Position numbers and translations under genes: made by a program | Source: a virus | Reading direction: 5' to 3' (one strand) | IMG/VR virus record: IMGVR_UViG_3300032331_000527 | Location: 1 to 64,000 of that record | Length of the DNA stretch: 64,000 bases | Shown: piece after piece, positions 1,035 to 63,999 of the stretch | Layout: every line of letters begins with the position of its first letter | Numbering within the stretch: the first letter of the stretch is position 1 | Notes under the pieces: model-generated | Told to the model about the DNA's origin: nothing | The model's database searches: none | The model's input: the letters and a program-made list of their open reading frames with translations, nothing else

Positions 1035-1321
1035 AGACCTCTTGTTGTCGTCAATACTTTTTCAAGCATTTCCTGACACTTATCCTTACGATTAGGCCAA
1101 TGGATATACGCTTTGTCTGACGTCTTGATGAGATTATTCAACAGAGGAACAATGATGCCCTCTAGAACTTTAATCTTATGAGCAAGCTCTTCTTCTTTAT
1201 CAGTGAGAGCTTGACCTTTCGCATCAAGCTCTAGAAGAACATCAGACTTAATTTCATCTTCGTCTACACCTGTGAATCCGAAGTCGAAGTCAGCATATTC
1301 CTGTGGTACTTTGATTGCCAT
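1031..1321 (-). CDS. Hypothetical protein
   Basis: 96 aa ORF abutting gp43 and overlapping the next gene by 4 nt. Confidence 0.75.
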   Translation of the reverse strand: MAIKVPQEYADFDFGFTGVDEDEIKSDVLLELDAKGQALTDKEEELAHKIKVLEGIIVPLLNNLIKTSDKAYIHWPNRKDKCQEMLEKVLTTTRGL

Positions 1322-3820
1322 TTAAAAGAAATCCTCTAGTGTGCTTTGCTTCTCTTCGTGCCAGTTAATCACTTCAAGGATTGCACGGAGCGGCGACATG
1401 AACGCTTTGTCGAACTGTGTATCGTAATCAATATATTCGTCTAGACGAAATTCATTTGGAAGCTGAGAGAAAGCACAAATCACGTTCTCATGAAGTGGAT
1501 TAGGCATTTTAAGATAAGAGAATCGAATCTTATCTCCATCCTGAATCAGTTCATATTTCTTCTGGAGCTTTAGCTTCTTAACACGATTGTTATAAGTGAT
1601 AGCACCACGAACATGAATCGGAATACTCTTAGTCTCGTTTTTATATTTAGTTAGATCTTGAACTGAACGAGGAAACGATACTTCCTCGAACGATAGCTTA
1701 TAGAATTTGGTTTTGAACTCAGAAATGAACGTATGAAGCTCGTTCTCTGGCTTAGTCATAACGATCAGGAGAGCTTCCTTAATAGCTTCACGACACACAG
1801 CAGGAGTCGAAGACTTGACAGCTTCGATTCCCATAATCTTCAGCTTTGGTTTCGCATAGCGAACGCCTTCCGAATCATGAACGTTGAGGATATATCGCTT
1901 CTTCGCAGTCCAGATGCCACGGTCAGCAATAACCTCACGCTTCATATTCATTTTTTGTTGGAAGGCAGACATATTGTCAGCAAGATCCTGATAGATGCGA
2001 TCAATAACTGGTTCCATCTTATCGCGAGCAACTTTATCCAGAAAGTTAATGATCTTCTCTTTAAGACCGTTATCAAGACCCTCTGTCTTAATCCTCTCCG
2101 CAAACACGCTATGTACCAGCTTATCAAAAGAGATATAAAGCGAGTCGGTATCAGACGCGATAACATAATCGTAATCTCCTGTTTTCAATAGATTATTGAG
2201 ATATCTATTCATCTCGTTTTCAGCCCAACGAATGGATAGCTGACCACCAAGAGTAATAGCAGTTGCCTGATCAATGTCAAAGAAACGGAAATGAGGATTA
2301 CCGATAGCGCCGTAAGCTGAGTTCAACTGTACCTTCTTTGCAAGCTGCATGTTCTTATATCGCGAGATATCTTTGACAGCCTGCTTATCTTTGGTTGCTT
2401 CGTAACGCTTTTGTGCCTCGATCATCTTGTCCTTATAGACGACGCGATCGTTATACATACGCTGCATAATCTCAGGGAGAAATCCCTGCTTATCCTTCTT
2501 GAAGAAGCATCCATTAGCTGCAAGACCGTAGCCTTCTGGTACTTCGGGGAATATCCCTTCAAGCAGCTCGTCTACGCTCGTGCGTGCTTTCTTTCCTTGC
2601 AATAGCGTCTCTGGAGAGATATTATATTGCATGATAAGATGAGGATACAGACTATTCAAGTCGAAGGACATAACCCAATCATATCCTCCAGGCTTAGGTT
2701 CTTTAACGAAAGCTCCGATATATGCTTCTTCTTTGCTACCTCCGCCAGTTAACGGAACAGCAACTTTCTTCTTCCACAAATGATTATGAGTAATGACATC
2801 CCACATACGCACTTGAGTAAAGATATCAAGCAGAGTAACCTTCGCATCGTACGCGAGCGCGAGAGCCATATCAATTAGCTTCATCTTGTCGTCTAGCTTC
2901 TCAACAAGCTCAACGTCTCGAATGTTATAGTCGATGAACTTCTTGAAGTCCTTCATGTAGAACTCATGAAGCGTTTCGTATTCGGAGTAATCTAACTTAC
3001 GCTCACCAAGCTCAACAAAACCAATATGATCTAGCTTATAGTTTTCTTGCTGCGTGTAAGTGAACTTCTGATACATCTCAAGATAATCGAGTGTGGCGAT
3101 ACCACCAATATTGTAGACGTGCTCTTCCTTACCAAACTTCGTGCGGACACGACGCTCCTTGAAAATACGCCACGGACTGAAAGATTTACTATGAGATTCA
3201 CCAAGGATAAAGTTCATGCGACGAACAAGATACGGAATATCAAAGAACGTGACGTTCCATCCAGTCACAATGTCTGGATATCCATCACTCCACTCGCTTA
3301 GAAACTTAGTCAACAGTTCCTTCTCGTTGTTGCACTGATAGTAGCGCACGTCCTCGCGCGATGAGTCGTAATCATAATATCCCCACACATGGAAGATACC
3401 ATTCTTCTTCAAAGCGATCGCAGTAATTTCTTGCGCTGCTACATCTGCGCTCGGGAATCCATTCTCGGAACTTACCTCGATATCAATATACGCAACATTG
3501 ATCTGCTCACGATCATAAACGATTTCGTTTTGATATTCCTCGTTCAGATAAGCATAGAGAAAGCGTGACATACCATAGACGGGAAAATTACTCACGTCTT
3601 CGTATCTCTTAACGAACTCTTTGGCGTCACGAATCGATTCGAAAGGCATAGGATCAAGCGGAAGCCCACGAATGTCCGACCACTCAGCGTTAGGACGCTT
3701 GCTTGGAAGGAACATCGTGGGCTTGTATGGAATCTTTTCTTCGAAGGGGCGTCCGCGATCGTAACCGCGGACGAGGATGTTGTTACCGTACTCTAAGGCA
3801 TTCGTGTAAAATTTGCTCAT
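1322..3820 (-). CDS. gp43: Family B DNA polymerase
   Basis: Exo motif DIEV, GWNV..FDIPY, SFDLNSLYPH, KVQLNSAYG, DTDS, KKRY. Confidence 0.98.
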   Translation of the reverse strand: MSKFYTNALEYGNNILVRGYDRGRPFEEKIPYKPTMFLPSKRPNAEWSDIRGLPLDPMPFESIRDAKEFVKRYEDVSNFPVYGMSRFLYAYLNEEYQNEIVYDREQINVAYIDIEVSSENGFPSADVAAQEITAIALKKNGIFHVWGYYDYDSSREDVRYYQCNNEKELLTKFLSEWSDGYPDIVTGWNVTFFDIPYLVRRMNFILGESHSKSFSPWRIFKERRVRTKFGKEEHVYNIGGIATLDYLEMYQKFTYTQQENYKLDHIGFVELGERKLDYSEYETLHEFYMKDFKKFIDYNIRDVELVEKLDDKMKLIDMALALAYDAKVTLLDIFTQVRMWDVITHNHLWKKKVAVPLTGGGSKEEAYIGAFVKEPKPGGYDWVMSFDLNSLYPHLIMQYNISPETLLQGKKARTSVDELLEGIFPEVPEGYGLAANGCFFKKDKQGFLPEIMQRMYNDRVVYKDKMIEAQKRYEATKDKQAVKDISRYKNMQLAKKVQLNSAYGAIGNPHFRFFDIDQATAITLGGQLSIRWAENEMNRYLNNLLKTGDYDYVIASDTDSLYISFDKLVHSVFAERIKTEGLDNGLKEKIINFLDKVARDKMEPVIDRIYQDLADNMSAFQQKMNMKREVIADRGIWTAKKRYILNVHDSEGVRYAKPKLKIMGIEAVKSSTPAVCREAIKEALLIVMTKPENELHTFISEFKTKFYKLSFEEVSFPRSVQDLTKYKNETKSIPIHVRGAITYNNRVKKLKLQKKYELIQDGDKIRFSYLKMPNPLHENVICAFSQLPNEFRLDEYIDYDTQFDKAFMSPLRAILEVINWHEEKQSTLEDFF

Positions 3821-11418: not shown

Positions 11419-12642
11419 TCAGAAAGCAATTTCCTGAGAGTTCTCCGCAGTGGTGGCTGCCGGAGTTTCGGTGACGGGATTGATCGTAGGATCAACCTTG
11501 CTATAGAGGTCCAAGAACGCAGTCTTGGTCTCTTCGTCGAAACGGTTAATGCAAAAGCGAATCGCTTTCATACGATCGCCAAGCATACGATAGGTTTGCG
11601 CGATATGCACGAGGCGACGAGTAGAGATAAGCTCGTCGATAGCGCCTTCGCTGAAAGTCTTGCGAATAATCTCAGACCACACGGTGAGATGCTCAACCAA
11701 TGACTTATCATCTTCAGTCATTGTAGTGTCACTGAGATAATTTGTCAAGATCTTTTTCTCGATCGCGGCAGTAGGATATTCCTGCTCGATGGTAATCGGG
11801 AAACGCTCAAGCCACGCATCGTCGAGCATGGTAGCCGCAACATAGCGTCCATCGTCAGAGCCACGACCCTTCGTGTTAGCAGTGACCATGATATTGAAGC
11901 CAGGAGCTGGTGTAACAATCTCGCCAGTCTTCTTCATGTAATAGGGCTTGCCTTCGAGAATGCCCTGAAGACACATAGCCTTGCCTGGATCAGCACGATC
12001 AGCCTCGTCGATGAGCAGAAGCGCACCGATTTCCATCGCGCGAAGCACTGGGCCTTTCATGAACTTCGTTTCGCCTTCGATAAGACGGAAGCCGCCAATC
12101 AAATCGTCTTCGTCAGTCTCACGAGACATCTGAACACGAATCATCGCACGCTTGGCCTTGGAACAAGCTTGCTCGACCATGAAAGTCTTGCCGTTACCAG
12201 AATGACCAGAGATGAACACAGGGAAGAACTGACCAGAAGCGATAATCTTCTCGATCATCTTGAACTCGCCAAAAGGCACATAGTTCTTGTCTTTGGCAGG
12301 AATCTGCGCATATTCATGCTCCGAAATAGCGTTCGGATTGAACTTCTTGGTCAATGGAGCGTCTTTGCGAATAGGAACGATGTCGGCCGCCATAGCAGCA
12401 ATGGAAGTCGTATCAACCTGAGACTTAGGTGCATTCTGCATTATGGCAGAAGTATCGTGGGTAGGAAGCTTATACACAGCACGCCCAGCACGATACGCAG
12501 GCTTATACAGCCAATGATGATCTGTATTACCAAAGCCATTCGAATCAGCCAGAGCGACCAGCTCTGCGACGGGAACAACAGCTTCAACGCCAAACTGAGC
12601 GATGGCGCACTCGAGGAACTTGATTTGACCAGCCTTCAACAT
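11419..12642 (-). CDS. MoxR/CobS-like AAA+ ATPase
   Basis: GHSGNGKT, EDDLIGGFRL, LLIDEAD, TANTKG.GSDDGRY, ISTRRL. Confidence 0.9.
   Translation of the reverse strand: MLKAGQIKFLECAIAQFGVEAVVPVAELVALADSNGFGNTDHHWLYKPAYRAGRAVYKLPTHDTSAIMQNAPKSQVDTTSIAAMAADIVPIRKDAPLTKKFNPNAISEHEYAQIPAKDKNYVPFGEFKMIEKIIASGQFFPVFISGHSGNGKTFMVEQACSKAKRAMIRVQMSRETDEDDLIGGFRLIEGETKFMKGPVLRAMEIGALLLIDEADRADPGKAMCLQGILEGKPYYMKKTGEIVTPAPGFNIMVTANTKGRGSDDGRYVAATMLDDAWLERFPITIEQEYPTAAIEKKILTNYLSDTTMTEDDKSLVEHLTVWSEIIRKTFSEGAIDELISTRRLVHIAQTYRMLGDRMKAIRFCINRFDEETKTAFLDLYSKVDPTINPVTETPAATTAENSQEIAF
11720..11748 (-). promoter_or_regulatory. Internal early promoter within the AAA+ gene
   Basis: TTGACA-N17-TACAAT. Confidence 0.55.
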
Positions 12643-12668
12643 TGGATTCACCTTTCATCATATAATAT

Positions 12669-12929: not shown

Positions 12930-15263
12930 TCACGCAGCGATCGTCTGAATGAAACGACCTAATACCGCACGAGAAGCTCCACGCTTGTTTTGGGCGGAGA
13001 TAAACGCCCTAGTAAGCTGTCCCTTTTTCATGTCCGAAACTGCATCGAATTTAGCCTGTTGGGCTAAGAGTGAACGTCCGCCCTGAATGAGATAAAACTC
13101 ATCGAAGTTGAGCATACCCTTGACGACGCAGCCTTTTTCCTTCTTCCACTGATTCATCAAGCCATCATGGTCCTTGTTGCAGTAACGATAGCCAATGTGG
13201 CGAACATCGTAAGGACCCCCGACGATATAGAAGCCAACGAACGTGGCGTTCTGAGAAGAACGAACGGTACGAGCATACATACCCGTAATTTCGTGCTGCT
13301 CTTGGAAGTTGATTCTCGTCTGAACACGAGACTCCTCGTCCACGAAAATGCGAGTCGTTTTATCAGTTCTGTGCTGATAGTGAGGCAGAGACGTATGATA
13401 ATGCGTTCCGCGATCGTACGGACGATACGACCAATACGAAGGACAGTTGCTCTCGCCGTCTGTGATGCATACGAAATTCATAATCTGAACGTTCTTTTCC
13501 TTGCGGAACTTCTTCATCAGATCACGAGAAACGAGCAGCGCACAGTTCAATGGTGTACCACCGAGAGAGAAGTATCTCATATCTTTGCCGTATCCGAATC
13601 CATTCTGAACAAGACTCGACGCATTGCTATACCCATTCTTGGTAGCAAATTCATCATCGCCACGCATATTATATTTCTGCGCAGCCAAGAGAAGAGCACC
13701 AGTCATGGTATTGAAGTCCTTGAGAGACATTTTCTCATGGAACATTTCGATGAGACTGAAATCATCCTCAGGGAAAACATAGTCCTTGTTACCGATACGA
13801 CGCTGGATAGCAAGACGCATATCCTTGCGCTTCTGCATCGACAGATGATAGTCCTTATCAGCTTCAGCCATCACGCTCGTGAAGCCATAGACACGATGAG
13901 GAATACCGACACGACGACAGAACATAGTCAAGCAAACAAGCTGGTCAATCGCACCACGAATGCTCGAAGACATAGAACCAGACATGTCCAGAACGACTAC
14001 GAGTCCATGATTCTTGCCAGTAGGCTCAATCGTAAGTCTACGGAAAATGTCGTCGTTGAACTTATAAGAATGAATCTTATTGGTATCAATGACGCCAGTC
14101 TTAGCCTGCTTGCTTCGCGCATACGAAACAGCAGCCTTCTTCATCTCGAACTCCTTCACCATATAGTTAATGGCGTTGTTGTTCTCCGAACGGAACGCAG
14201 TCAGAAGCCTTTGACGATATTCCATCAGCACAGAACGATTGGAAGCACGAGCGAAATCGTGCTCAATCATCTTAATGATAGCCTGATAATCGTATGTGAA
14301 CGGCTCGTATGTAATATCCTTCGGAAAGGAGATATAGCGAAAGTCACGGCCAGTCAGCGACTGATCGAGAAGTTCTTCCATACGATCGTTCATGGCACGA
14401 TCAGTCGTAGCCTCTTCTACTCCATCGAGCGGATCGGACTTACCACCTTTGGTGCCAGGAGAGTTGGCTTCAGAATCGGAATCCTCTTCTTCGCCATCTT
14501 CCTCGGTATCTTCGCTGTCGTCCGACTCATCGCCGTCACCGTAGTCCTCGTCATCAAAGTCGTCGGACTCTTGACCTTCGCCGTCTTCGTCTTCGTCATC
14601 AGCAAGGCTAGTAGATACGTCGCGATTGTCCTCATCTTCTTTCTTGATCTTGGCCCAAGCAAGAAGATCTTCAGACAGCTTAACAACGTCGTCGAACGTG
14701 ATAGTCTGTTCAGCACGGCGGACGAACACACGCTCTTCTTCCGAGAATTTGATACGGATACGAGTACCAAGCTTGAAGTAGAGATTGATACGGTCGATGA
14801 GAGACAGATTATCAACTTCGCGATTAGCCAGCTCAAAGAAATCTTTATCGTGGAGATAGTTGTATCCGTCGATGAAATCCTTGCGCGAGCCAGGAAACTT
14901 GGTCTTGATCTTGCGCTCGATGCGAGCGTCTTCGACCACATTCATGTAGCCTTGGAACGTTTGACCGACACGCTTAGATTCGTGTTCTTTGGTGGCGTTG
15001 TCAATCGCGCCTTTCCAAGCATCGGCTGGAGTTTCCAGCGCATGACCAACTTCGTGGAGCACGAGCATATGATAGAGCGCCTCGCTCATTTCATCCCACA
15101 TAGGCAAGCCAAGGACACGATTCTTCACGTCGAAATAAGCTGTGCGAATGGGTTTATGCTCAACGGTGATGTTCTCGGCCGCAAGCAGCTTGGCGAGCTT
15201 ATCGAGCTCTCCGCCCGGACGGACCATTTTTGTAGATTCAGCCATTGCCTTCTCCTTCATCAT
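12930..15263 (-). CDS. Zincin-motif peptidase + acidic linker + VWA domain protein (CobT-like MoxR partner)
   Basis: HEVGH, NVVEDARIE, D/E-rich linker, DMSGS MIDAS, GGTPL, ITDGE. Confidence 0.85.
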   Translation of the reverse strand: MMKEKAMAESTKMVRPGGELDKLAKLLAAENITVEHKPIRTAYFDVKNRVLGLPMWDEMSEALYHMLVLHEVGHALETPADAWKGAIDNATKEHESKRVGQTFQGYMNVVEDARIERKIKTKFPGSRKDFIDGYNYLHDKDFFELANREVDNLSLIDRINLYFKLGTRIRIKFSEEERVFVRRAEQTITFDDVVKLSEDLLAWAKIKKEDEDNRDVSTSLADDEDEDGEGQESDDFDDEDYGDGDESDDSEDTEEDGEEEDSDSEANSPGTKGGKSDPLDGVEEATTDRAMNDRMEELLDQSLTGRDFRYISFPKDITYEPFTYDYQAIIKMIEHDFARASNRSVLMEYRQRLLTAFRSENNNAINYMVKEFEMKKAAVSYARSKQAKTGVIDTNKIHSYKFNDDIFRRLTIEPTGKNHGLVVVLDMSGSMSSSIRGAIDQLVCLTMFCRRVGIPHRVYGFTSVMAEADKDYHLSMQKRKDMRLAIQRRIGNKDYVFPEDDFSLIEMFHEKMSLKDFNTMTGALLLAAQKYNMRGDDEFATKNGYSNASSLVQNGFGYGKDMRYFSLGGTPLNCALLVSRDLMKKFRKEKNVQIMNFVCITDGESNCPSYWSYRPYDRGTHYHTSLPHYQHRTDKTTRIFVDEESRVQTRINFQEQHEITGMYARTVRSSQNATFVGFYIVGGPYDVRHIGYRYCNKDHDGLMNQWKKEKGCVVKGMLNFDEFYLIQGGRSLLAQQAKFDAVSDMKKGQLTRAFISAQNKRGASRAVLGRFIQTIAA

Positions 15264-16682: not shown

Positions 16683-17375
16683 TTACGAAGCTAACGGAGA
16701 TTTTAACGCAATGAACCCCGTAAAGGCGTGATTCTGCCAAAAGGTATCGATCGCGGTAAAGCCCGCCGCGCGGCACATATCGAAAATCTCTTCGCGGGTA
16801 TTGGGCTTGGTCATGTGGCGGAGTTGTCGCTCCTTATCCAAAATGTCGTCCGAGGTAAATGTGCGCCGCTTGTAATCGTAGTAGGTAAAGGTACGCATCT
16901 CATGGACACGAACATTCTCTGGCATCGTCTTCTCAGCGAACACGAAAGCACCGCCAGGATTCAAACCTTGGAACACGCTATTGATCACTCGCGAGCGATC
17001 CTGATGCGACATGAACTGGAGTGTGAAGATTGACGTGACATACGAGCAGTTATAGAAGTGGAAATCGTTGGCGTTGCCTTGATGATAGTCCAGGTTCAAA
17101 TAGTCCTTCGTATCCTGTTCGTATGTGCTCCAGAACGCTTCTTCGATCTCTACGCCCGTGTACTGTGCGTTCGGAGCGAATGTGTTTTGAGCGATCATGT
17201 ATTTAAGCATCTTACCGGTCGAGCAACCGATATCAACGACGCTTGTGTAGTCTTCCACAAAATACTGAGAATAATCTACGACGTCATTCCACATATCATT
17301 ATATCCACGGATGGATGTATCAATGTGCTCGTCGAATCCTTCTTCGCGTGTAGCGAACGTAAACTTACCTGTCAT
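16683..17375 (-). CDS. cmoA: CmoA-like carboxy-S-adenosylmethionine synthase (class I SAM fold)
   Basis: F..HI..SI.GY, VDIGCSTG, FTLQF, L.PGGAFVFAEK, AGF...F.GFIALK parallel E. coli CmoA. Confidence 0.8.
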   Translation of the reverse strand: MTGKFTFATREEGFDEHIDTSIRGYNDMWNDVVDYSQYFVEDYTSVVDIGCSTGKMLKYMIAQNTFAPNAQYTGVEIEEAFWSTYEQDTKDYLNLDYHQGNANDFHFYNCSYVTSIFTLQFMSHQDRSRVINSVFQGLNPGGAFVFAEKTMPENVRVHEMRTFTYYDYKRRTFTSDDILDKERQLRHMTKPNTREEIFDMCRAAGFTAIDTFWQNHAFTGFIALKSPLAS

Positions 17376-18513
17376 TCTGTAACTCCTTATATGGTTTCAA
17401 GATATTTTCATAAATGCTAGTCGCAAGAGCACCCATCATCTTTGGTGCTACCATACGACCGATTCGTTCAGCCTGCTGATCAAACGTGCCAGTGAGTTCG
17501 TAGTCATCAGGAAGACTCATTATACGTTTCATTTCTTTGATTGTCAATTTCCTATTTGCAGCGTAGTGCATAACACCAGAGGCAGAACGTTGTTGACCCA
17601 TTTGCGTGAGCGTAGGAGAAGGACGATTTGGCGATGGGCGTTTCATATTGAAACAAGAGAGTTTGCCATTGACGAGTCCTGGCTTCAAAGTCTTCGTTGG
17701 ATTGAAAGCCATAGTCTCGACGAATTTCTTTTGGAAACTGCTCTCACAGAAGTCAAGGAGCATTTGAACTTCTGCTGGATCATTATCAATCCCTTCTATC
17801 GCGCTTCCGATAGATACACCTTGCGATGTGGTGGACATAGGATAAATCCGACCAGCGAGTTCATACTCCTCCAGCCCCAGAGCCTCGAAAACGTCACTCC
17901 TTACTCCCACGAAGAATGTGCGCATGCGACTCTGGGGCACCCCAAACTTCGAAGCATCCATCACCTGATAAACCATTTTATATCCGGGTGTGATATGCTC
18001 GAAGCCTGTTACGAAATCACGAAGCTTTTCAATTGCTGCTCGTGACGTAATACCTTCAACATTTTCCGCTACAATAACTTTAGGTTGAATATCCTCAGCG
18101 ATTCTTATATATTCTAGAAACAGATTCTCAATGTTAGTAACAGTCTTGCCGTCGGAATATTTCTTTTCGCGATTCCAACCCTTCTTACCTTTACCAGAAG
18201 TAGAGAACGCAGAACACGGAGGAGACCCGTCGAGGATATCCAATTCTCTTGGTTGTAATCCTCCTACTTCTAGGAGATCTTTACCCGTGATAGCTTTGAT
18301 ATCCCCGAGAATCACTTTGGTGTCGGGAAAGTTGCGCGAATAGGTAGCAACAGCTTCCTCAACGAACTCGTTGATCGCAACAACTTTCCCGCCAGCTAAC
18401 CTATATCCAGTCGAAGATCCACCACCTCCTGCGAAAGTCGATACGACTGTAAATAGTTCTCGACTCGAGGATTTCCTAACATCTTCGATCGTATATGGTT
18501 GATAGTGATTCAC
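17365..18513 (-). CDS. C5-cytosine DNA methyltransferase family enzyme (predicted carboxymethyltransferase)
   Basis: Motif I FAGGGG, IV GSPPCSAFS, VI ENV, VIII GVPQSR.R, IX RKLT..E..R...LPD, X GRMV. Confidence 0.9.
   Translation of the reverse strand: MNHYQPYTIEDVRKSSSRELFTVVSTFAGGGGSSTGYRLAGGKVVAINEFVEEAVATYSRNFPDTKVILGDIKAITGKDLLEVGGLQPRELDILDGSPPCSAFSTSGKGKKGWNREKKYSDGKTVTNIENLFLEYIRIAEDIQPKVIVAENVEGITSRAAIEKLRDFVTGFEHITPGYKMVYQVMDASKFGVPQSRMRTFFVGVRSDVFEALGLEEYELAGRIYPMSTTSQGVSIGSAIEGIDNDPAEVQMLLDFCESSFQKKFVETMAFNPTKTLKPGLVNGKLSCFNMKRPSPNRPSPTLTQMGQQRSASGVMHYAANRKLTIKEMKRIMSLPDDYELTGTFDQQAERIGRMVAPKMMGALATSIYENILKPYKELQNDR
17519..17547 (-). promoter_or_regulatory. Perfect sigma70 promoter inside the MTase gene, driving the cmoA-like gene
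   Basis: TTGACA-N17-TATAAT. Confidence 0.7.
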
Positions 18514-20764: not shown

Positions 20765-21834
20765 TATGCTTCCATATTCAATGCTTCATTATATAATGAG
20801 CGCATGAGTTTGTCAAGATCATTATTATCTACATTAGACTCAATCGTGGTAATATACTTAGATAGGATTGTCAGCGTATCTTCTGCCTCATCCAACAACT
20901 CACTCTCACTAATCATATCCATATTACGATGATCCTCTACGATAGTAACGTCTAGAGGCGCAGCTTCATACAGCTTCGTGGTAAACAAATCGAAGTTCAT
21001 CGGATTATCTTTGTTCGACACGATGAGCTTCACATAAGCTCCTGAATACTTATTCCAATCACGATCGAGCAATTCTTCGGTCGTAGAATTTTTATCGTTG
21101 TACCAGATCTTGCGGAACATACGATATGGATTTTCTATGAACGCCAGTTCACGAGTTTCCGTATCAAGGATATGGAATCCTTTAGGGTCATCGTAGTCGC
21201 TCCAAGTAAATTCAGCATGGCTACCAAGGTAATGAATGTTCCCAGCAGAAGACCTGTGATGATAGTGACCGCTAAGGACCATATCAAACCTACCAAAAAG
21301 ACTACGATCGTCTCCGTGACTGACCGGACTACCGCGATACATTTCGAAACCTGCAAGCTCAAGGTGGCCCATGCAGATTTGAGCATTTGTGGATCCTATC
21401 TGTTGCAGAATGATATCTCTGTTCTCATCACAAATCCACGGTAGCATCATAATCTTAGTGCCATCAAACTCTACGACCTTAGCGTATTCATCGTAGATTT
21501 TAAAGTCTGGATACTTATCTACTAGCAACTCCTGTAGAACATTGACGCTATTCGTGTTCTTGAAGTATGTGTCGTGATTGCCTACGAGGATATGGAAATC
21601 TATAGACTCACTGGCAATCCTATCGAGGAACTCTGTACGCAGACGTTTAGCAGTGTTAATGTTAAGATATTTACGACGGTCAACCAAATCCCCGAGATGG
21701 ATAACAGTGTTAATGCGATGATTATCGAGATACGGAAAGAAAATGTCATCTAGGAACTTCTTATTGTTATCAAGGAACGCTGACTGGTCGTTACGCACTC
21801 CCCAGTGCGTATCAGTAATCAAAGCAATTTTCAT
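20764..21834 (-). CDS. gp47: Recombination endonuclease subunit, SbcD/Mre11-like
   Basis: DTHWG, HLGDLVD, GNHD, SGHYH. Confidence 0.96.
   Translation of the reverse strand: MKIALITDTHWGVRNDQSAFLDNNKKFLDDIFFPYLDNHRINTVIHLGDLVDRRKYLNINTAKRLRTEFLDRIASESIDFHILVGNHDTYFKNTNSVNVLQELLVDKYPDFKIYDEYAKVVEFDGTKIMMLPWICDENRDIILQQIGSTNAQICMGHLELAGFEMYRGSPVSHGDDRSLFGRFDMVLSGHYHHRSSAGNIHYLGSHAEFTWSDYDDPKGFHILDTETRELAFIENPYRMFRKIWYNDKNSTTEELLDRDWNKYSGAYVKLIVSNKDNPMNFDLFTTKLYEAAPLDVTIVEDHRNMDMISESELLDEAEDTLTILSKYITTIESNVDNNDLDKLMRSLYNEALNMEA
20788..20816 (-). promoter_or_regulatory. Perfect sigma70 promoter in the 3' end of gp47, driving gp46
   Basis: TTGACA-N17-TATAAT. Confidence 0.7.
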
Positions 21835-24722: not shown

Positions 24723-24751
24723 TTGACATTTTAACAATTAAAGCATATAAT
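24723..24751 (+). promoter_or_regulatory. Perfect sigma70 promoter pointing antisense into gp3
   Basis: TTGACA-N17-TATAAT on plus strand, back-to-back with the uvsY promoter. Confidence 0.7.
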
Positions 24752-63683: not shown

Positions 63684-63999
63684 ATCCCTTCCAAGTACCG
63701 AATATCAAATCCCACACAGGGATAAACACACCATAATTACGAGTCGGGTCTTGGTGATGGATTAGATGCCACTTACCACTGGTAAGGAACGGATAAAGAT
63801 TAATGCGTTTGTTGTGTTCTATAGCTTCCTGAATGAAAGCAGCCCAAACATAATAAGCTACGAATAACCACCAATGACCTGTTACAGCACTAATTATAAA
63901 GGTTGGGATCACCTCTGTCAACCACTGATCTACGGTACTGTTTATCGTATCAAACCAAAGAAATGCGTTCTTCCAGCTCAATCCCTGTATCGTAGCATT
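63664..63999 (-). CDS. Fatty acid hydroxylase/sterol desaturase family, 3' part (open to window end)
   Basis: EH, WHLIHH, NYG....WD.IFGT; frame has no stop up to 64000. Confidence 0.8.
   Translation of the reverse strand, partial: NATIQGLSWKNAFLWFDTINSTVDQWLTEVIPTFIISAVTGHWWLFVAYYVWAAFIQEAIEHNKRINLYPFLTSGKWHLIHHQDPTRNYGVFIPVWDLIFGTWKGFDGNRK

Follow-up and report, generated by a model that had tools for sequence, protein, structure and literature searches.

The first 64 kb of a linear, 139,058-bp IMG/VR record (IMGVR_UViG_3300032331_000527), which we refer to as the window, come from an uncultured T4-like myovirus; the CheckV completeness estimate for the record is 78%. Here we describe two overlapping genes in the window, cmoX and cmoA, whose products are homologues of a DNA cytosine C5-carboxymethyltransferase and of the synthase of carboxy-S-adenosylmethionine (Cx-SAM) (Table 1). 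An initial annotation of this DNA had described a C5-cytosine methyltransferase gene that overlaps a CmoA-like gene by 11 nt. This overlap is found at positions 17365–17375, where the ATG of cmoA lies inside the 3' end of cmoX. At its other end, the GTG start of cmoX overlaps the stop of a peptide deformylase gene (pdf) as GTGA.

Table 1. Positions of the cmoX–cmoA pair and of the associated sites in the window.
Feature	Position	Strand	Description
cmoX	17365..18513	(-)	DNA cytosine C5-carboxymethyltransferase homologue, 382 aa, GTG start
cmoA	16683..17375	(-)	carboxy-SAM synthase homologue, 230 aa, ATG start
Promoter sequence within cmoX	17519..17547	(-)	perfect sigma-70-type promoter TTGACA-N17-TATAAT, 12/12 matches, inside cmoX coding sequence
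Promoter sequence upstream of gp46-like gene	20788..20816	(-)	second perfect TTGACA-N17-TATAAT, in the gp47-like gene 3' end, just upstream of the gp46-like gene
Empty cmoY site	1316..1324	(-)	DNA polymerase stop TAA directly abuts ATG of next small gene

The CmoX protein belongs to the C5-cytosine methyltransferase family. It matched PF00145 over profile positions 1–323 of 324 (E 5.6e-51; 174.3 bits with a cut-off of 22) and TIGR00675 with 147 bits (cut-off 100.65). The catalytic Cys100 lies in an SPPC motif (residues 97–100; Cys codon at 18214–18216), and ENV (150–152) and QxRxR (194–198) are also present. Motif X reads QAERIGRMVAP at residues 347–357, as the initial annotation had reported, and the Arg within its ERIGRMV portion is residue 353 (codon at 17455–17457). 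The top PDB match was 8YF3, the CmoX of Synechococcus phage S-B43 (SpCmoX) with Cx-SAM, which aligned with residues 6–373 at E 2.8e-104; the runner-up was M.HaeIII at E 3.6e-18.

The system to which SpCmoX belongs, the CmoA, CmoX and CmoY proteins of S-B43, was described in December 2025 (Yang et al., Nat Commun 2025; PMC12783734). SpCmoA is a Cx-SAM synthase that is faster than Escherichia coli CmoA, with a kcat of 2.33 per s, and SpCmoX makes 5-carboxymethylcytosine (5cxmC) in vitro and in E. coli, but only when CmoA is present. The target of SpCmoX is GC motifs and its product blocks HhaI. In the 1.9-Å structure 8YF3, Arg-350 replaces Asn-304 of HhaI and contacts the carboxymethyl group of Cx-SAM, while F25, E47, F48 and D69 contact the adenine and ribose; the wild-type enzyme accepts only Cx-SAM, and the R350N variant is inactive with both cofactors. 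CmoY is an asparagine-synthetase-like ligase that converts 5cxmC to its glycine amide, 5gcxmC, and only 5gcxmC, with no 5cxmC, was found in native S-B43 DNA. The authors also drew a parallel with the engineered M.MpeI N374K, which uses Cx-SAM and makes 5cxmC (PMC12783734); the initial annotation had named this variant as a carboxymethyltransferase, and the paper confirms that statement.

The window CmoX is 51% identical to SpCmoX and 50% identical to the homologue in phage S-CRM01. Its residues 97–100 aligned without a gap to S95–C98 of SpCmoX, and R353 (in ERIGRMV) stood opposite R350 (in ERVGRMV) with no gap within the surrounding 60 residues. The SpCmoX contacts F25, E47, F48 and D69 correspond to F27, E49, F50 and D71 of the window protein (alignment A2), and these four residues, S97–C100 and R353 are invariant columns in the CmoX alignment. 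In the printed 8YF3 alignment, SPPC falls on chain residues 95–98 and the Arg of ERVGRMV on residue 350; because these counted positions agree with those in PMC12783734, the chain numbering is the numbering used there. The equivalence of R350 with HhaI Asn-304 and with N374 was taken from the same paper.

The product of the downstream gene matched generic class-I methyltransferase Pfam domains, and its only specific family and structure matches were to CmoA, which bears out the CmoA-like label of the initial annotation. The best NCBIfam match was TIGR00740 (E 1.4e-26), and the best PDB matches were E. coli CmoA (4gek, E 9.3e-22; 4iwn, E 4e-21) and Haemophilus influenzae YecO (1im8), the three together spanning E 9e-22 to 7e-17. 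The protein is 51% identical to SpCmoA and 54% identical to the CmoA of S-CRM01. Among the ligands of the SAM moiety in E. coli CmoA, PMC3663124 names Y39, D62, G64, S66, D89, D117, N132 and F137. Residues Y39, D62, G64, S66 and F137 are identical in the window protein (as Y25, D48, G50, S52 and F121); D89, D117 and N132 correspond to E76, N101 and I116, and to E, N and L in SpCmoA. On this comparison we count the SAM-moiety ligands as retained in the window CmoA.

To place the pair in its lineage, we compared 10 related IMG/VR loci by tblastn, 9 of which have a full-length cmoX (the start codon at the same position is ATG in 4 of these 9). In all 10 loci cmoX is followed by cmoA, and cmoA overlaps cmoX in every relative. 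The gp46–pdf genes lie upstream in 9 of the 10, the tenth ending at a contig edge, and a DUF7717 gene lies downstream in 8. SPPC is kept in all 9 full-length relatives and ERIGRMVAP in all 10. The cmoA and cmoX genes also occur together in S-B43, S-CRM01 and related cultured phages, and the arrangement is not due to chance. At the amino acid level CmoX is 88–93% identical in 8 relatives, compared with 68–74% for the gp46-like protein, 64–78% for the deformylase and 73–78% for CmoA. The third codon positions of cmoX are only 53–60% identical among relatives, which is near saturation. Because CmoX is far more conserved than the flanking proteins while its third positions are near saturation, it seems to be under unusually strong purifying constraint. 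No near-identical DNA of the cmoX–cmoA pair was found among the 50,697 phage records searched, a set from which close records may have been withheld.

In S-B43, cmoY sits between cmoA and cmoX, whereas nothing lies between cmoX and cmoA in the window. The 139,058-bp, 78%-complete record contained no match to SpCmoY, to the CmoY of the relative G001 or to PF00733 (E≤10), so that the ligase of the three-gene 5gcxmC system was not found in it. As positive controls, the CmoY search recovered the gene in S-B43 (E 1e-189) and in G001 (E 5.2e-82). In G001 (157,580 bp, 90% complete) the CmoY protein is 53% identical to SpCmoY, and its gene is 16 kb downstream of cmoX–cmoA. In this genome, and in the relatives G005 and G007, cmoY encodes a 269-aa Asn-synthase-type ligase and lies exactly between the DNA polymerase gene and the gene that comes next. 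The window contains the same junction without cmoY (Table 1), and the product of its next gene is 78–87% identical to that of the gene that follows cmoY in G001, G005 and G007. In G002 and G008 the polymerase gene is also followed directly by the next gene, in a more divergent form, with no cmoY. Thus, of the 6 genomes in which the junction is covered, 3 have cmoY, and the window, G002 and G008 do not. The complete S-CRM01 genome gave no PF00733 or SpCmoY match. The lack of a CmoY match together with the empty syntenic site leads us to predict unligated 5cxmC as the end product in the window phage.

At the occupied site, G001 alone has a 70-aa, Lys/Arg-rich open reading frame (ORF) without a Pfam family between the polymerase gene and cmoY (68119–68331; L022:16120–16332). 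In G005 and G007 cmoY comes directly after the polymerase gene.

We consider it highly probable that the window phage has a CmoA–CmoX DNA hypermodification module that ends in unligated 5cxmC. In this module, CmoA would turn SAM and host prephenate into Cx-SAM. CmoX would bind the carboxylate of this cofactor through Arg353, which replaces the motif-X Asn, and by a covalent mechanism involving Cys100 would attach the carboxymethyl group at cytosine C5 of the phage DNA to yield 5cxmC. By analogy with SpCmoX, the target is probably GC dinucleotides, and the modified base would shield phage DNA from restriction enzymes. Without CmoY to form the glycine amide 5gcxmC, the final base would stay at unligated 5cxmC; that free 5cxmC is the final base of virion DNA in this phage and in its cmoY-less sisters is a narrower proposal that we favor only slightly. 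The initial annotation had likewise proposed that Cx-SAM is made by the phage itself and used by a C5-methyltransferase with Arg in motif X to write 5cxmC, either for protection or to provide a handle on which further modification could build, and homology to the assayed S-B43 pair supports this. It had also mentioned a similar pair in a cyanophage, which fits S-B43; the mechanism is already published in PMC12783734.

Several observations weigh against this reading. The window CmoA scored below the curated equivalog cut-offs, with 93.6 bits versus 193.3 for TIGR00740 and 78.8 versus 285 for NF011995. With the same two models, E. coli CmoA scored 455 and 582, SpCmoA 115.6 and 102, and the S-CRM01 protein 119 and 105. 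Because the cut-offs exclude the assayed SpCmoA, they do not discriminate for phage CmoA proteins. A second point concerns Arg199 of E. coli CmoA, which PMC3663124 describes as forming a salt bridge with the cofactor carboxylate. Both phmmer and MAFFT place a Glu (E182) opposite this residue. The initial annotation had called this position ambiguous, and it is so: E182 is part of DKERQLR (residues 180–186), where shifting a one-residue gap would put R183 opposite Arg199. R186 stands opposite E. coli E203, one turn of the helix further, and does not vary among the 14 aligned phage CmoA proteins, including the one from a Staphylococcus phage. The order R...E in E. coli CmoA is therefore E...R in the phage proteins, with the Arg four residues on, which may reflect an exchange of the two residues on a single helix face. 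SpCmoA, which is active, has the same configuration of Glu and then Arg four residues on and, like the window CmoA, scores below the cut-offs; the concern about Arg199 is thus eased by homology and not by alignment.

The low CmoA scores and the unaligned Arg199, along with the matches of both proteins to generic methyltransferase families, would also fit an ordinary SAM-dependent, orphan anti-restriction methylase that makes 5-methylcytosine and lies beside an unrelated methyltransferase for small molecules or RNA. We regard this explanation as very improbable. The Asn used by C5-methyltransferases is replaced by Arg, and wild-type SpCmoX did not accept SAM (PMC12783734). The two genes are together in all 10 relatives as well as in S-B43, S-CRM01 and related cultured phages, and beyond generic Pfam domains the second protein has specific matches only to CmoA.

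Two of the opposing observations concern the target of CmoX. The target recognition region of C5-methyltransferases lies between motif VIII and motif IX. In the window CmoX this region is visibly less conserved relative to SpCmoX than are the catalytic motifs, and with such moderate similarity GC specificity is only a guess. In addition, GC-containing palindromes are avoided like others, with observed/expected (O/E) ratios of 0.61 for GGCC, the most avoided 4-mer palindrome, 0.11 for GGCGCC and 0.16 for GAGCTC. For 6-mer palindromes the median O/E was 0.75 with GC (n=23) and 0.83 without GC (n=41; Mann–Whitney p = 0.47). Selection at GC sites thus does not look relaxed, as it might if these sites were protected, and the palindrome statistics are uninformative about the target motif.

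The last opposing point is that the record is 78% complete; a ligase of another family or one encoded elsewhere could have escaped our search. The same module could then make 5cxmC only as an intermediate, whose further conversion would be due to a ligase or some other enzyme that lies in the unseen ~22% of the genome or belongs to an unrecognized family. This is consistent with a linear, incomplete record in which 4 of 12 neighboring ORFs have no Pfam family, with the several ligase clusters of different predicted amine substrates and the exclusive presence of 5gcxmC in native S-B43 DNA (PMC12783734), and with the cmoY genes of three sister genomes. However, the site that holds cmoY in all three bearers is present and empty in the window, G002 and G008 have the same empty junction, the complete S-CRM01 genome has cmoA–cmoX with no PF00733 or SpCmoY match, and 139 kb of the window phage gave no PF00733 match at E≤10. 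Further conversion is therefore a possibility to which we give limited weight, and we retain unligated 5cxmC as the predicted product.

The initial annotation had assigned a perfect promoter to the cmoA-like gene. This site (Table 1) does match the two hexamers at every position on the minus strand, and the cmoA ATG follows 143 nt after the end of its –10 box. Across the record there are 11 perfect TTGACA-N17-TATAAT sequences, compared with 0.04–0.055 expected, and 9 of these are on the minus, main coding strand; from this excess we conclude that consensus promoters are a real feature of this phage. Those inside the window are at 17519–17547, 20788–20816, 24723–24751 and 63893–63921, and several of the 11 fall within the 3' end of the gene before them. 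The sequence TTGACA-N17-TAT(A/C/T)AT occurs at the same position of cmoX in 9 of the 10 related loci; the cmoX site is in frame on codons L323–T324 and R330–I331–M332. Across 9 aligned cmoX genes, only 48 of the 289 codons for invariant residues are themselves invariant. Of the 23 invariant Leu residues, only the one encoded by the TTG of the –35 box has the same codon in every gene, and of the 13 invariant Arg residues this holds only for the one encoded by CGT, whose T opens the –10 box. Variation in the internal promoter is confined to the spacer and the fourth –10 position. This pattern is good evidence that selection acts on the DNA sequence of the promoter itself. A search for sequencing runs gave 20 of the DNA type and none of RNA.

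The internal site probably gives cmoA its own transcript, and the predicted promoter, if it fires, may serve to raise the supply of CmoA. The second perfect site (20788–20816) is likely the promoter of a chain of genes consisting of the gp46-like gene, pdf, cmoX and cmoA. The ORF ends along this chain touch or overlap (20764/20764, 19061/19061, 18510–18513 and 17365–17375), and these coordinates predict that the four genes are co-transcribed. The pair would then form the end of this chain, with cmoA having an extra promoter of its own, and an extra cmoA promoter fits a stoichiometric demand for the cofactor.

A strong predicted promoter for cmoA might also suggest that CmoA acts mainly on host metabolism, with DNA modification being secondary. 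CmoA could drain SAM to counter SAM-dependent defenses, and SAM depletion was raised as a possibility in PMC12783734, or it could feed host CmoB for the synthesis of uridine 5-oxyacetic acid (cmo5U). We think a mainly metabolic role is very unlikely. The initial annotation had seen no cmoB nearby, and TIGR00452 had no match at E≤10 in the whole 139,058-bp record; moreover, the overlap of cmoA with cmoX is found in every relative. A metabolic role would in any case add to the supply of Cx-SAM for CmoX and not exclude it.

The relative L011 (6001–7287) has a divergent CmoX that is only 57% identical to that of the window, although its gp46, pdf and cmoA products are 72–78% identical, as in other relatives. 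This CmoX has a 28-aa insertion after motif IV and insertions of 13 and 5 aa in the variable region. It retains SPPC and ERIGRMVAP, and its gene has lost the internal promoter. The L011 form may represent a swap of target specificity.

We scanned 12 neighboring ORFs around cmoX and cmoA with Pfam. Upstream of cmoX are pdf and then genes for gp46-like and gp47-like nuclease subunits, and downstream of cmoA is a DUF7717 gene that also has a promoter-like site. Other neighbors encode a sigma-like protein, a UvsW-type helicase and an AAA_5 ATPase or are ORFs without a family. No restriction-enzyme-specific Pfam family was found among the 12 ORFs, 4 of which have no family at all; this agrees with the initial annotation, which had seen no restriction enzyme gene nearby. 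The match of the helicase to PF04851 (ResIII) is due to its helicase domain. Thus, Pfam gave no sign among these neighbors of a cognate endonuclease beside the methyltransferase as in a classical restriction-modification system, although a small ORF without a family might encode one. ParB_N (PF02195), which is found in many CmoX contigs (PMC12783734), had no match in the 139,058-bp record. The DNA polymerase of the phage is ~51% identical both to that of Methylophilales phage Melnitz and to those of cyanomyoviruses, and psbA (PF00124) had no match in the record; because of the latter we do not call this phage a cyanophage.

Also in the window, a 777-aa ORF at 12930–15263 (-) has a long acidic stretch and no Pfam match. 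It adjoins the AAA_5 (CbbQ/NorQ-like) ATPase gene at 11419–12651, and this pair is kept in G001 with 59% and 84% identity.

By homology, the window pair is a further member of the published system, and its mechanism is already known. Its CmoX and CmoA are each 51% identical to the S-B43 proteins and share with them SPPC, the Arg at 350/353, the four named Cx-SAM contacts and the local Glu...Arg motif of CmoA, and both phages are T4-like myoviruses with genomes in which cmoB is lacking. The two differ in that the S-B43 order is cmoA–cmoY–cmoX, whereas in the window phage cmoX precedes cmoA with an 11-nt overlap, the ligase gene has no match, psbA has no match and a conserved internal promoter sequence would serve cmoA; the window pair is also known from sequence alone. 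A parallel to the two-gene form is the complete genome of S-CRM01 (HQ615693.1), which has cmoA and cmoX (54% and 50% identical to those of the window at the protein level) without cmoY in a region of replication and recombination genes. By contrast with the window, the order there is cmoA then cmoX, and the neighbors are regA and the clamp loader. The S-CRM01 pair is annotated only as methyltransferases, and our full-text literature search found no assay of it.

In M.MpeI N374K a basic residue in place of the motif-X Asn also lets a C5-methyltransferase use Cx-SAM and make 5cxmC (PMC12783734). That enzyme was engineered by introducing Lys into a bacterial CG methylase and has methylase ancestry, whereas the window CmoX carries its Arg naturally and has a cofactor synthase of its own. 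The tRNA cmo5U pathway of E. coli (CmoA/CmoB; b1870/b1871) has in common with the window phage the Cx-SAM synthase fold and most SAM-binding residues. It differs in that the window phage has no cmoB match and its predicted acceptor is DNA cytosine and not U34 of tRNA, that a Glu aligns with Arg199 and the next invariant Arg comes four residues later, and that the window CmoA scores below the equivalog cut-off.

The survey in PMC12783734 listed 5,615 candidate CmoX proteins (with SPPC and R350), 4,257 CmoA proteins and 2,251 ligases from IMG/VR v4, UniProtKB and MGnify. Since IMG/VR v4 was one of its sources, the window CmoX is probably among these candidates. Our full-text literature search found no other paper on natural CmoX or 5cxmC in phages. 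To the published account the window and its relatives add the reversed, overlapping gene order, a predicted cmoA promoter conserved at synonymous sites, the displaced Arg of phage CmoA proteins and a presence/absence polymorphism of cmoY at a remote but fixed site. They also show the CmoA–CmoX logic recovered independently, by sequence analysis only, in a lineage with no evident cyanophage character. The ligase step seems to be optional, with cmoY swapping in and out 16 kb from cmoX–cmoA. A gene at this distance is missed by neighborhood surveys, so proximity-based ligase counts may be too low.

If free 5cxmC is indeed the final base, this would be a state that PMC12783734 did not detect in native phage. 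A cmoY cassette within one freshwater T4-like lineage would then provide near-isogenic natural pairs for studying carboxylate capping, the benefit of which might be escape from enzymes that recognize 5cxmC or charge neutralization for packaging. Genomes predicted to have exposed carboxylates would be the cleanest material on the effects of 5cxmC on restriction, polymerases and packaging, and they would be a source of CmoX variants, such as the L011 form with insertions, for DNA-labeling tools.

Related genes were seen in more distant phages. The 'hhaIM' protein of Melnitz-3 (MZ577098.1, L015:3995–5212) is 41% identical to the window CmoX and has SPPC, and it reads ARIGLMVAP, with a Leu where CmoX has Arg and ordinary C5-methyltransferases have Asn. 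CmoA matches were found in 67 phage records, none of them from Melnitz, and immediately upstream of the DNA polymerase gene that adjoins 'hhaIM' is a RimK-like ATP-grasp gene. An SPbeta-like Staphylococcus phage (KT429160.1, L014:3983–5682) has an annotated cmoA directly before an 'hhaIM' methylase gene. Its CmoA is 36% identical to that of the window and scores 155 bits with TIGR00740. A simple pattern search found neither SPPC nor the Q..G..V motif in this 'hhaIM' protein, which may represent another type of DNA enzyme that uses Cx-SAM, here in a phage of Firmicutes. Records of Erwinia/Dickeya jumbo phages (e.g. MZ443770.1) contain a CmoA-like gene of ~25–27% identity near 12–13 kb and a CmoX-like match in two pieces, with ~33% identity, near 30–35 kb; because these genes are so far apart, neighborhood-based surveys leave them unlinked.

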